Part shown: positions 6,319-9,973 of the stretch, in pieces | Numbering within the stretch: position 1 is the first letter of the stretch | How the letters are laid out: every line of letters starts with the position of its first letter | Assembly: GCA_002779075.1 (NCBI GenBank) | Contig: PEXK01000053.1 | Span: 1 to 23,730 of the forward strand | Reading direction: 5' to 3' | Length of the DNA stretch: 23,730 nt | Source: Candidatus Diapherotrites archaeon CG08_land_8_20_14_0_20_30_16 | GTDB lineage: Archaea > Iainarchaeota > Iainarchaeia > Iainarchaeales > 0-14-0-20-30-16 | Made by a program: the position numbers and the translations under genes | The notes under the pieces: model-generated | Databases searched by the model: none | Told to the model about the DNA's origin: nothing | Seen by the model: only the letters and a program-made list of their open reading frames with translations

Positions 6319-9300
6319 TGTTATCACCCAGCCCAGAGTCTTGGGTTGTTGTTTCTATAATATCTACATCTTTCACAAAGTCTTGTTCATCTAATTTTAT
6401 TAATCTAACGCCTTTTGTGTTTCTGCTCAATTCAGGCAATTGCTCTAAGTAAGTTCTTATCACTATTCCCTTTTCTGTTATTACTAATACTTCGTTTGCT
6501 GAAGTTACAATTAATGCTTTTAATATGTTCCCTGCATTTTTCACATTCATTGCAATTGTTCCTTTTGCTCCTCTTTTTGTTTCTCTAAACTCCACAATAG
6601 GGGTGATTTTTGCATAACCTAATCTAGATACAAATAATATTTTGTCATCATCAGAAACAACATTCACACTCACAATTTCTGAGTTGCCCAAGTTCATAGC
6701 TTTTACTCCTGCTGCTTGTCTTCCCATTGGCCTTACATTGTTTGGTTCAAATAAAACTGCTTTTCCTGCTTCGCTCACAATAAATACTTTTTTGCTTTCT
6801 TCAACGAGTCTTACAGTTACTACTTGGTCCTTTTCAAGAATGTTTATTACTTTTAAGCCATTAGCCCTTATTTTTTTAATTAGATCAAATTGCATTTTCT
6901 TTATCTTGCCATGTTTTGTAACAATTATTACCTGATATTTTGCGCTTTCTTTAACAATCTCCACTGTAACAGGTATTATGTTGGTAATTGTTTCATCAGT
7001 TTCCATTTTCAATATATTTACAATGTGTCTGCCTTTTGCAACTCTAGATGCTTCTGGTATTGTGAAACAATCTAGTGTGTATAATCTTCCTTTATTAGTA
7101 AACAAATATAAGATGTCATGAGTGTTTGCAACAACAAATTCTTTTATAATATCTTCCTCTATTTTAGTTGATTTTATTCCCTTTCCTGCTCTGTTTTGTA
7201 TGTGATATTCTTGCAAATCCATTCTTTTTATATACCCATTTGCAGTTAACAATATTGCCTCCTTTTTGTTTTCAACAAATTCTCTTAAGTTAACATTTTT
7301 TGTTATTTTCTCATTTGTAATTTGTGTTTTTCTCAAATCACCATATTTCTTTTTCATATCTAAGATCTCATTTTTAATGTGCTCTTTTAATTTTTGTTCA
7401 GAATCCAAAATCGATTTAAGATCTTCTATTTGTTTTTTTGTTTCTTCAAATTCTTTTTTCAAATTATCTATTTCTAATCCTGTTAATTTTTGCAATTTCA
7501 TATCTAAAATTGCTTGTGCTTGAATATCATCCAGTTTAAATCTATTAATTAATCCCTGTTTTGCTGTGTTTGGATCTTTTGAGCTTTTAATTATTGCAAT
7601 TGCTTCATCAATATTTGCAATAGCGATCATCAAACCTTTTAATATGTGCAGTTTCTTTTGCAGTTTATCAATATCGAATGCAAGCCAACGTTTTGTAACT
7701 TCTATCCTATGGTCTAAATATGCTTTTAATACTTGTTTTAAATCCATTAATTTTGGTTGGCCCTTGTCTAATACTAAGAAATTTACTGGAAAAGAAGTTT
7801 CTAATTCTGTGTGTTTAAATAAATTATTTATAATTATTTCTGATTCTGCGTTTGAATTTATTTCAACAACTAAACGCATACCCTCTTTATCAGATTCATC
7901 TCTTAAATCAGCAATGCCTTTTATTTCCCCATCATTCACTAATTTTGCAATGTGTTCAATTACTGTGCTTTTATTTACTTTGTAGGGAATTTCTGTAAAA
8001 ACAATTTTTTTATGCCCTTTTTTAGTATCTTCAATTTTATAATTTGCTCTTACATATACTGCTCCTCTACCAGTTTCGTAAATGCTTTGCATGTCATATT
8101 GATTTAATATTGTTGCACCAGTTGGAAAATCAGGGGCTTTTATATATTGAACCAAATCTTTAACTTCGGATTCTGGTTTGTCAATTAATAAAGTCAAGGC
8201 ATCACAAACTTCATTTAGGTTGTGTGTAGGGATATTCGTTGCCATACCTACAGCAATCCCTGATGCGCCATTTATTATTAGATTGGGTATTTTTGCAGGC
8301 AAAACTGTTGGTTCTGTTAATGAATTATCATAATTGTGGGTAAAATCAACAGTATTTTTGTCAATATCAACTAGCATTTCTTCTGCTATCTTGTTTAACT
8401 TAGCTTCTGTATATCTTGAAGCAGCAGGGGAGTCCCCGTCAACAGAGTTGTGAACAAATATTCCTGATGCTAATGCAAAATTATGGGTATCATTTACAGT
8501 TAAATCATAAACATCTTCGCGATCAGTTATAAATTTTACATTAACAACTTTATGATTTCCACTTATTTCATAAAATATTAAATTAAGATTATTGTTAAAA
8601 TATTTGTTGAATCCTGTTTCCCATTTGGTTGCTCGACTATTTGGATATGCCACAATTCTTGTTTCTTCATAGGTCTTTTCACAAATTATTTTTTTTGATT
8701 CTAAAATTTGTTTGCAGATATTTAAAAATTTTATTTTTCCTGTTTTATTTGTAGTGTGGTTTTTATTTCCTTTAATAATTTTTTCATGCATTTTTAATTT
8801 ATATTCTGGGGTTTGCCACATTTTTTTCAATGTGTTTGTTAATCTTTTACTAAATTCAATTTTCTTTTCGGGATGTTCTGCAATATATTTTTTATTAACT
8901 TCACTTAATGTTTTAGTCATTTGTTCTCTATATTCTTTATTTGTCCAGTTTAATTTATTTTTATTACTCATAGCAATAGAATATTTCTTTTTATTTTCGT
9001 TATCATTCCAAAATTTAATTCTACCTTCTGCAATTTTCAATCTATATTCTGAATCGTTCTTATGTCTGTCAGATGCAATATCATAGTGTGTTTTCCAGTG
9101 TTCTTTCCAATTCATACGAACTATATTTGTAGGATTGTTATTTAATTTATTAAAATCTTTGTGATGTCTTGTTCGACCTTCAGATTTAGTATATATTTTA
9201 TTTTCTATATTCCAGTTGTCTGCAAGAATGTGTGAATAAGTCCAACTATTATTAAATGGTTGATTTATTTGTTCATAGCCAACTAAATTTGGATCTCCTG

Positions 9301-9973
9301 ATTTATCAGAATATTTTGTGTATAGTGGCATTAAAGAATCGTTTTCTTTTAAGCCTTGTGCTTCTTTATATTTGCCTGTTTTTAATAAAAATCTATGGTT
9401 TGGAGTACATCTTATTTCTTCATTATTATCTAATATTACTTTTATTAATTTTGCATTTTTTATTGTTAATCTAGGATTTTCAATTTTTGCTATTTTAATT
9501 TTTTTATCATTATCTATTGTAAATGTGTAATTCTCTTTACCTTCTTGATGCTCTTTTACCAAATCTTCAAAACTTAAACATCTTCCATCAGCTAATCTTA
9601 CTTTTGTATCTTTTGTAAAACACCCAAAATTTCCTTGACCCTCTACTAAAGTATACCTTAAGGAAAAGTCTTGTGCCATCCTTACCAAAGCATCATAAAC
9701 AGATAAATCTCCATGGGGGTGGTATTTACCCATAGCCTCACCTACAATTCTTGCACATTTCTTGTAGGGTTTATTGTGCCAAAGGCTTAATTCCATCATT
9801 GAGTACAAAATACGCCTCTGGACAGGCTTTAGACCATCCCTTACATCAGGTAAGGCCCTGCCTGTTATAACAGACATAGCATAAGATAAATACGAAGTTT
9901 TCATTTCTTTTGATATATTAGTTAATATTATGTTCTGTGATTGCCCTACCAAGTTGCCACCTTCTAAAAACAC
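6311..9973 (-). CDS. gyrA: DNA gyrase subunit A, interrupted in-frame by a 392-aa intein
   Basis: Extein motifs: [54 protein letters not shown], then the insertion, then [17 protein letters not shown] (catalytic Tyr), followed by C-terminal beta-pinwheel repeats. The start is ambiguous: either GTG 9973, or TTG 9952 preceded by AGGTGG. Stop TGA at 6311-6313 overlaps the gyrB ATG. Confidence 0.95.
8447..9622 (-). mobile_element. GyrA intein (aa 118-509) with an HNH-type homing-endonuclease module
   Basis: Starts with Cys (TGT, 9620-9622) directly after GNFG. Block A is [13 protein letters not shown] and block B is IRCTPNHRF (TxxH). Blocks F/G are [22 protein letters not shown], followed by +1 Ser (TCT, 8444-8446). 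The central region contains [30 protein letters not shown], an HNH signature (about 9083-9175). No LAGLIDADG motif was seen. Confidence 0.85.

Follow-up and report, generated by a model that had tools for sequence, protein, structure and literature searches.

The gyrA locus and its insert

The stretch of DNA analyzed here (hereafter the window: 23,730 nucleotides of contig PEXK01000053.1, assembly GCA_002779075.1) comes from a Candidatus Diapherotrites archaeon, a member of DPANN, and carries on its minus strand the genes for both subunits of DNA gyrase, the first of which – gyrA – contains an insert of 392 amino acids. The gyrA open reading frame (positions 6311..9973, minus strand) encodes a precursor of 1220 amino acids that matches the NCBIfam gyrA equivalog NF004043 at 1029 bits, together with other Pfam and NCBIfam families. 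It consists of three parts: an N-extein (9623..9973, minus strand; residues 1-117) that ends in GQGNFG and so places Gly at the -1 position; the insert, an intein (8447..9622, minus strand; precursor residues 118-509); and a C-extein (6311..8446, minus strand) whose first residue is the +1 Ser and whose catalytic Tyr lies 11 residues beyond it. The reading frame is uninterrupted across the whole of the insert, and GyrA minus the insert is a normal gyrase A of 828 amino acids. A first-pass annotation, made from the DNA letters, had described GyrA as split by 392 residues between GQGNFG and the C-extein: the exact coordinates bear this out, and the motifs that it quoted (Cys1, TxxH, FVHN, the +1 Ser, an HNH stretch and stretches with W, EY(R/K) and M) were all found where it had put them.

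The same protein is held at NCBI as PIU21923.1 (100% identical; from a metagenome-assembled genome of a Candidatus Diapherotrites archaeon). It was deposited as a 'hypothetical protein' despite the 1029 bits to gyrA, presumably because the intein defeated automatic naming. Directly downstream lies gyrB (4408..6327, minus strand; 639 amino acids), which has no intein: its EGDSAGG|S site (here and below the bar marks an intein junction) is empty. The two genes, gyrA first, overlap by 17 nucleotides (6311..6327); relatives L004-L007 share this gene order, with an overlap of similar size.

The splicing domain

Profiles for inteins match the insert well above their cut-offs: Pfam Intein_splicing (PF14890) scores 68.1 bits (cut-off 35.8), NCBIfam intein_Nterm (TIGR01445) 49.1 bits (cut-off 24.5; E 8.4e-13) and NCBIfam intein_Cterm (TIGR01443) 30.7 bits (cut-off 15.6; E 2.6e-7). 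The N-terminal splicing region (9323..9622, minus strand; intein residues 1-100) holds block A, with Cys1, and block B, which reads T73-P-N-H76; the C-terminal splicing region (8447..8560, minus strand; residues 355-392), to which inteins in the PDB also match, holds block F and block G, the latter being FVHN at residues 389-392. Conservation was counted, here and throughout, over 20 full-length members of the family from three host proteins (GyrA, GyrB and dCTP deaminase). The residues C1 (20/20), T73, H76, H391 and N392 are invariant, as are N356, H357, V371, N381 and F382 in the C-terminal region, while D370 and H380 of block F are kept in at least 90% of the family. At the junctions, Gly stands at -1 and H391-N392 is followed by Ser, a +1 residue that is native to GyrA in orthologues without an intein.

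An AlphaFold2 (AF2) model of the intein, built on 20 relatives, has a mean predicted local distance difference test score (pLDDT) of 87. In this model both ends of the intein fold into a single Hint domain, for which Foldseek returns solved inteins such as NrdJ-1, DnaE, DnaB and RecA (TMt ~0.6). None of the 13 nearest GyrA orthologues (P0122-P0134; 62-81% identical, 811-862 amino acids) has the insert: 13 out of 13 read straight through the site, with an uninterrupted GQGNFGS(V/I)DGD. Together, the profiles above threshold, the predicted Hint fold and the orthologues lacking the insert confirm what the first-pass annotation had proposed, namely that the 392 residues are a class-1 intein (Hint superfamily) and not a domain of GyrA. 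The same annotation had considered the element splicing-competent by its look, and with its splicing residues intact and invariant across the family it does appear to be so.

A predicted HNH nuclease core

Between the two splicing regions lies an endonuclease region of several parts. The first (9176..9322, minus strand; intein residues 101-149) is predicted to be a three-stranded beta-sheet with a helix (AF2 strands 102-104, 117-121 and 126-129; helix 130-140), within which H131, L133, D135 and N138 are invariant; it is similar to the sheet at the N-terminus of I-HmuI and of NUMOD4 proteins, its BFVD neighbors of these kinds having weak E-values. The second (9077..9175, minus strand; residues 150-182) is the putative nuclease core. 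Its motif, H153-H154-x11-N166-x8-H175-x3-H179, is invariant across the GyrA, GyrB and dCTP deaminase hosts, and so are N158, N161, N162, P164 and R169 in the same region. The arrangement HH-x11-N-x8-H-x3-H has the residue set and the spacing of colicin-type HNH sites. The model of the full intein places here a strand (151-154), a second strand (167-170) and a helix (172-189), all with pLDDT >90; a model of the central domain only gives pLDDT 63-71 over the motif.

Searches with profiles of HNH families gave a consistent signal that stays below threshold. Pfam HNH_3 scores 16-20 bits on five relatives (E 5e-4 to 7e-3), always at the same motif, and the PHROG HNH endonuclease family matches the center of this intein with an E-value of 1.2e-3, also sub-threshold. 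The first-pass annotation had proposed a profile check of the insert for both its intein and its HNH parts; the intein N- and C-terminal families thus passed their thresholds, while the HNH families remained below theirs. Structural comparison of the central domain with BFVD placed first, at 4e-8, a phage SP-15 protein with an intein-type Hint domain, and the named neighbors below it are nearly all HNH or homing endonucleases. Against the PDB, neither Foldseek nor a sequence profile of the central domain returned a significant match, and Foldseek of the whole intein returned Hint domains only. LAGLIDADG families have no match in the intein at E up to 1; such matches do occur in other GyrA inteins (P0135, P0246 and P0251). 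The invariant motif, the predicted beta-beta-alpha element, the consistent sub-threshold HNH_3 and PHROG matches, the BFVD neighbors and the lack of any LAGLIDADG match all favor the earlier suggestion of an HNH center in place of a LAGLIDADG one. On this combined evidence we accept the center as a predicted HNH nuclease domain, with profile scores short of the formal cut-offs.

Helical repeats and the C-terminal subdomain

Downstream of the nuclease core are about five helical repeats of 21-22 amino acids (8756..9076, minus strand; intein residues 183-289) with the motif W-x(2-5)-EY(R/K)-x(2)-M, each modeled by AF2 as one long helix. Profile-profile alignment (hhalign) relates the units to each other (u2 to u4, E 6e-10; u1 to u2, 1.3e-7; u0 to u2, 7e-6) and the double unit u1+u2 to u3+u4 (E 3.9e-9). 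The three copies that had been quoted earlier (204-218, 225-235 and 268-278) are u1, u2 and u4; u0 and u3 are degenerate. Searched with a hidden Markov model of the unit, the 392-residue query yields two significant copies, P0029 (523 amino acids) five and shuffled controls none: given that the seeds of the model were picked by the pattern itself, only the comparison with the shuffled sequences and the additional copies are informative. The number of repeats differs among relatives at the GNFG|S site, and GyrB inteins have repeat sets of their own.

The repeat array has no match in Pfam, among the NUMOD families (searched at E up to 10 over the central domain and the repeat region) or in the PDB, and hhalign of the repeats against the DNA-binding domain of I-TevI found nothing with an approximate I-TevI query sequence. 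Because there is neither a Pfam NUMOD match nor similarity to I-TevI, the suggestion in the first-pass annotation that NUMOD modules might be present is unsupported by sequence; weakly matching structural neighbors that bear the name NUMOD4 are all that the search of the insert produced. Its view of the helical repeats as modular DNA-binding units fared better in one respect: they are genuine internal repeats, and by analogy with the layout of I-HmuI-type enzymes they may well bind DNA. That the array is an undescribed modular DNA-recognition device, with each helix reading a few base pairs and with gains or losses of copies adjusting how long or how specific the homing site is, is a speculative extension of this view that we hold to be doubtful. 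The repeats are followed by a C-terminal helical subdomain of the endonuclease region (8561..8755, minus strand; residues 290-354; AF2 helices 293-308, 315-325, 334-342 and 346-353). These four helices gave no significant family or fold match; as modeled, they are possibly helix-turn-helix-like.

The insertion site

The +1 Ser of the GNFG|S junction stands 11 residues ahead of the catalytic Tyr, which we take to be Tyr122 of E. coli, and the junction is therefore equivalent to E. coli Gly110|Ser111. This count agrees with the earlier manual alignment, which had placed the site about 11 residues upstream of that Tyr. Mycobacterial GyrA inteins such as Mxe GyrA share the host protein, the class-1 type and a position in the catalytic core near Tyr122, but are inserted behind the catalytic Tyr (RY|C...HN|T), at a distance of 12 residues downstream from GNFG|S. 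They are known as LAGLIDADG-type or mini-inteins, not as HNH inteins. In keeping with the notion of a separate allele, three metagenomic GyrA fragments (P0010, P0022 and P0117) carry an intein at GNFG|S, then SxDGDxxAAMRY, and then a second intein that starts with Cys at RY|C: because both are occupied in the same proteins, the GNFG|S and RY|T sites are distinct, and the insertion allele differs, as had been supposed, from the classical mycobacterial one, named 'GyrA-a' (PMC5050341). The NCBIfam profile GyrA_w_intein (NF038098) scores 784 bits on the GyrA precursor, short of its cut-off of 1850.

A third site in GyrA is occupied in P0135 (1263 amino acids; extein 62% identical), where a LAGLIDADG-type intein lies at ARIVGE|C...VVHN| and GNFG|S is empty. 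In the relative L005 the intein-less gyrA site reads ACTTTAGTTGAAGGACAAGGAAACTTCGGATCTGTCGATGGGGATTCTCCAGCAGCATCA. No paper on an intein at the GNFG|S site of GyrA was found in the literature searched, the InBase catalogue being outside that search.

Distribution of the GNFG|S intein

A protein search with the intein alone matched 549 proteins. The top 120 are mostly GyrA fragments with identical junctions, and the hosts named among them are Nanoarchaeota, Woesearchaeota, Micrarchaeota, Patescibacteria/Parcubacteria and Omnitrophica; one match, P0042, is labeled 'intein-containing DNA gyrase subunit A' by NCBI. Among relatives in which both junctions could be read, 28 of 51 sit at the GyrA site GQGN[FWM]G|C...HN|S[VILMN]DGD, the best being 57% identical, and many truncated matches have the same N-terminal junction. 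The lengths of these 28 inteins vary: 16 measure 391-393 amino acids, three are longer (among them P0022 with 449 and P0029 with 523 amino acids) and nine are shortened (154-328). Such a mix of full-length, expanded and shrunken copies is the pattern expected of the invasion-decay cycle of a homing element.

A profile of the central domain reaches further: among 1.84 billion representatives it matched 2752 clusters (50% identity) at E up to 1e-3, 670 of them at E 1e-10 or better, and many in very long proteins with multiple inteins. A scan of genomes gave three loci, in Woesearchaeota, Pacearchaeota and Patescibacteria – few, because the query was one protein and not an alignment, so that the number is no census. 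The proposal of a different allele, to which the first-pass annotation had attached the proviso that this exact site and architecture be uncommon, consequently stands as regards the site and falls as regards rarity: both are already common in public metagenomic data, with P0042 even named for its intein. The family to which the GNFG|S intein belongs, as an unremarkable member, is already known and widespread, and dozens of GyrAs of DPANN, Patescibacteria and Omnitrophica have this intein at precisely this site.

Comparison with known systems

The nearest known systems are HNH inteins at the Toprim site of GyrB (EGDSAGG|C...HN|SAKQGR), which are homologous to the GyrA intein from end to end (31-40% identity, 100% coverage). 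The order of parts is the same – N-terminal Hint region, beta-sheet, HNH, W-x-EY(R/K) repeats, helical subdomain, C-terminal Hint region – as are the HNH residues, the -1 Gly and the +1 Ser. Identity is highest in the splicing regions (45-61% in the N-terminal and 54-73% in the C-terminal one) and falls to ~33% in the central region, compared to ~50% within the GyrA group. The GyrB inteins differ in host gene and target DNA, and are 30-45 amino acids longer. They are probably the family of the Synechocystis sp. PCC6803 GyrB intein, which has this site and architecture; the cyanobacterial GyrB proteins P0094 and P0097, found among the intein matches, fit this grouping indirectly. HNH inteins have been known since 1997, the Synechocystis GyrB intein reportedly having been recognized as the first of them by Dalgaard et al. 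in that year, in a paper that PMC5050341 and bioRxiv 10.1101/2025.01.02.630785 both cite.

Two possible links between the gyrA and gyrB sites were considered and rejected. A jump between genes by way of shared target DNA finds no support in the sites themselves, which agree at 19 of 60 bases, no more than expected by chance (other registers average 15 and reach 23 at most); targets this dissimilar fit a recognition region that has diverged. For the gyrB intein of L005, recent recombination is equally unsupported: the N-terminal regions are 61% identical, within the 54-71% seen for other GyrA inteins, and the central regions only 34%.

The homing endonuclease I-HmuI (PDB 1U3E), encoded by a group I intron of phage SPO1, shares with the intein an extended modular layout of N-terminal beta-sheet, HNH beta-beta-alpha-metal motif, long helices and C-terminal helical domain. 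Its catalytic segment aligns with that of the intein (VVDHKDGNKDNNLSTNLRWVT is one side of the alignment) with 44% identity over 25 columns, at a marginal E-value of 0.011 (hhalign; the I-HmuI query was verified as identical to PDB 1U3E), and I-HmuI-type, HNH and NUMOD4 proteins make up most of the structural neighbors of the central domain. I-HmuI differs in being free-standing and intron-encoded, in having two helices in place of the roughly five repeats of the intein, and in a sequence relationship that is marginal. It also has a D-H...N...N variant of the motif, whereas the intein has the full HH..N..H..H.

Inteins of phages match along their full length, at 27-29% identity and with E-values of 1e-30 to 4e-35. 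One lies in the dCTP deaminase gene of the cyanophage vB_AphaS-CL131 of Aphanizomenon (MG209611.1:68717-69772), the other in an unannotated gene of Bacillus phage SP-15 that encodes a Hint-domain protein (KT624200.1:12642-13772). Their host proteins are different and the relationship is much more distant, but full-length copies in two phage genomes, distant as they are, make phages plausible carriers of the intein family.

Close relatives and the population

The gyrA-gyrB arrangement of this organism is common to L005, L006, L007 and P0132, which allows both intein sites to be compared. None of these relatives has the gyrA intein, although their GyrAs are 80% (L005), 81% (L006), 70% (L007) and 67% (P0132) identical to that encoded here, and the gyrB site is likewise empty in L006, L007 and P0132, as it is in this organism. 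The exception is L005, a sister lineage (8531-11740; JGI 3300013138, Ga0172371_10003576), where gyrB contains a sister HNH intein of the same family (430 amino acids) at EGDSAGG|C...HN|SAKQGR: L005 and this organism thus carry the family in opposite gyrase subunits. Since close relatives are without intein in both subunits, and the presence of the intein is sporadic, gyrase does not need it, and sporadic presence is what would be expected of a selfish mobile element. Six near-identical assemblies of this organism all have the intein, with 0 or 1 amino-acid change; in this population it is fixed.

Composition and neighboring genes

The AT content of the intein clearly exceeds that of its host gene (GC content 0.25 vs 0.31; GC at third codon positions 0.148 vs 0.215), and Lys and Asn are enriched in it relative to the rest of GyrA. 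Foreign origin or relaxed constraint could account for this, and both are compatible with the data.

Elsewhere in the window a gene with a Bro-N domain, a family typical of phages and viruses, occupies 2416..3114 (plus strand). A Bro-N gene is also found near gyrAB in L005, and the gene may therefore be long established here rather than newly inserted. At 12085..15102 (minus strand) an open reading frame of 1005 amino acids combines a hydrophobic segment at the N-terminus, a Lys/Glu-rich middle part resembling a coiled coil and a hydrophobic anchor at the C-terminus; it has no Pfam match in the precomputed table.

Discussion

We consider it probable (roughly 0.85) that the insert in GyrA is a class-1 intein that is also a mobile element: translated within its host protein, it would combine self-splicing with an HNH homing nuclease. 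The anatomy of the insert, its conservation, its presence and absence in close relatives and the degraded copies elsewhere are observed; splicing is deduced from the conserved residues, and cleavage and DNA binding by analogy with characterized HNH homing endonucleases. Following translation the Hint domain (intein residues 1-100 plus 355-392) would excise the insert: Cys1, aided by T73 and H76 of block B, would attack the Gly(-1)-Cys1 bond to give a thioester, the +1 Ser would take over the N-extein, and Asn392, aided by His391, would cyclize and release the intein. The product would be the normal GyrA of 828 amino acids; the precursor would have to be inactive, because its catalytic core is interrupted 12 residues away from the active-site Tyr. 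The freed intein may then act as an I-HmuI-like HNH (beta-beta-alpha-metal) nuclease by way of residues ~101-182, with the array of about five repeats and the helical subdomain most likely lying along the DNA, an arrangement that would confer a long asymmetric recognition site spanning the empty GNFG|S junction. By the same analogy, gyrA alleles without the intein would be nicked or cut by the nuclease near GGTCAAGGAAATTTTGGG^TCTGTTGACGGGGAC, and their repair on the template of an intein-containing copy would insert the element and so allow it to spread.

Several points weigh against a homing intein of this kind. No Pfam HNH family reaches its curated threshold on the insert itself, HNH_3 scoring 13.5 bits (E 0.055) against 24.8; we know of no HNH intein endonuclease of this family that has been tested biochemically; and an empty gyrA site was found in none of the six assemblies of this organism, so that current homing is undemonstrated.

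The last of these points leads to an alternative that we regard as possible, if unlikely: the intein may be a passenger, its splicing intact and its endonuclease dead, fixed in the lineage as a late stage of the homing cycle and inherited vertically only. With the intein present in all six assemblies, and its copies differing by no more than one amino acid, the population has run out of target sites; shortened and mini-intein forms at GNFG|S in other lineages point to decay as the usual fate, and AT-rich drift of the intein fits relaxed constraint. What decay would lead one to expect is nonetheless missing from this copy, which retains all family-invariant residues, H153, H154, N166, H175 and H179 included, has the modal full length of 392 amino acids, and shows no frameshifts or deletions.

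It is far less probable that splicing has been co-opted as a conditional switch, sensing redox state, temperature or DNA damage and tuning the amount of active gyrase. The position in the catalytic core, so close to the active-site Tyr, would suit such a role, as would two extra cysteines (C15 and C72) in the intein and the published argument (PMC4760082) that the clustering of inteins in replication proteins has a functional cause. Close relatives, however, manage without an intein in either gyrase subunit, the sporadic presence is the expectation for a selfish element, and the sequence contains no hint of a sensor.

Slimmer still is the chance that the center is no nuclease at all but an insert with a DNA-binding or structural role, its likeness to the HNH motif being superficial. 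The sub-threshold HNH profile matches, the lack of a significant PDB fold match and the low pLDDT (63-71 across the motif) of the model of the central domain only would all be accommodated by this explanation. It sits poorly with a pattern of four His and an Asn, at colicin-type spacing, that is invariant across GyrA, GyrB and dCTP deaminase hosts, with pLDDT >90 for the beta-beta-alpha element in the full model, and with BFVD neighbors that are nearly all HNH homing endonucleases. That the 392 residues are a lineage-specific domain of GyrA and not a mobile insert, as the open reading frame alone might suggest, is refuted by the 13 orthologues (62-81% identical) without it, by the intein profile matches and by the same element in GyrB, dCTP deaminase and phage proteins, and we give it practically no weight.

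Taken as a self-splicing intein with an HNH homing nuclease, the insert belongs to a type that is still called non-canonical, and rare in comparison to LAGLIDADG inteins (bioRxiv 10.1101/2025.01.02.630785; PMC2677866). Surveys of archaeal gyrases have discarded intein-bearing GyrA sequences (PMC9348778). As to annotation, the 'hypothetical protein' PIU21923.1 is plainly GyrA plus an intein. The compact Gly(-1)/Ser(+1) splicing domain, kin to GyrB inteins already in use in protein engineering, is of possible though modest practical value. An uncharacterized HNH nickase or nuclease with what may be a repeat-based DNA-binding arm could merit study; the unclassified helical repeat array is the sole part of the element that might repay such work. 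For the family as a whole, the data provide a natural set in which one kind of HNH intein occurs in two gyrase subunits and in phages, as full-length, expanded and decayed copies – a family common to DPANN archaea and to bacteria of the candidate phyla radiation, which often share the same habitats.

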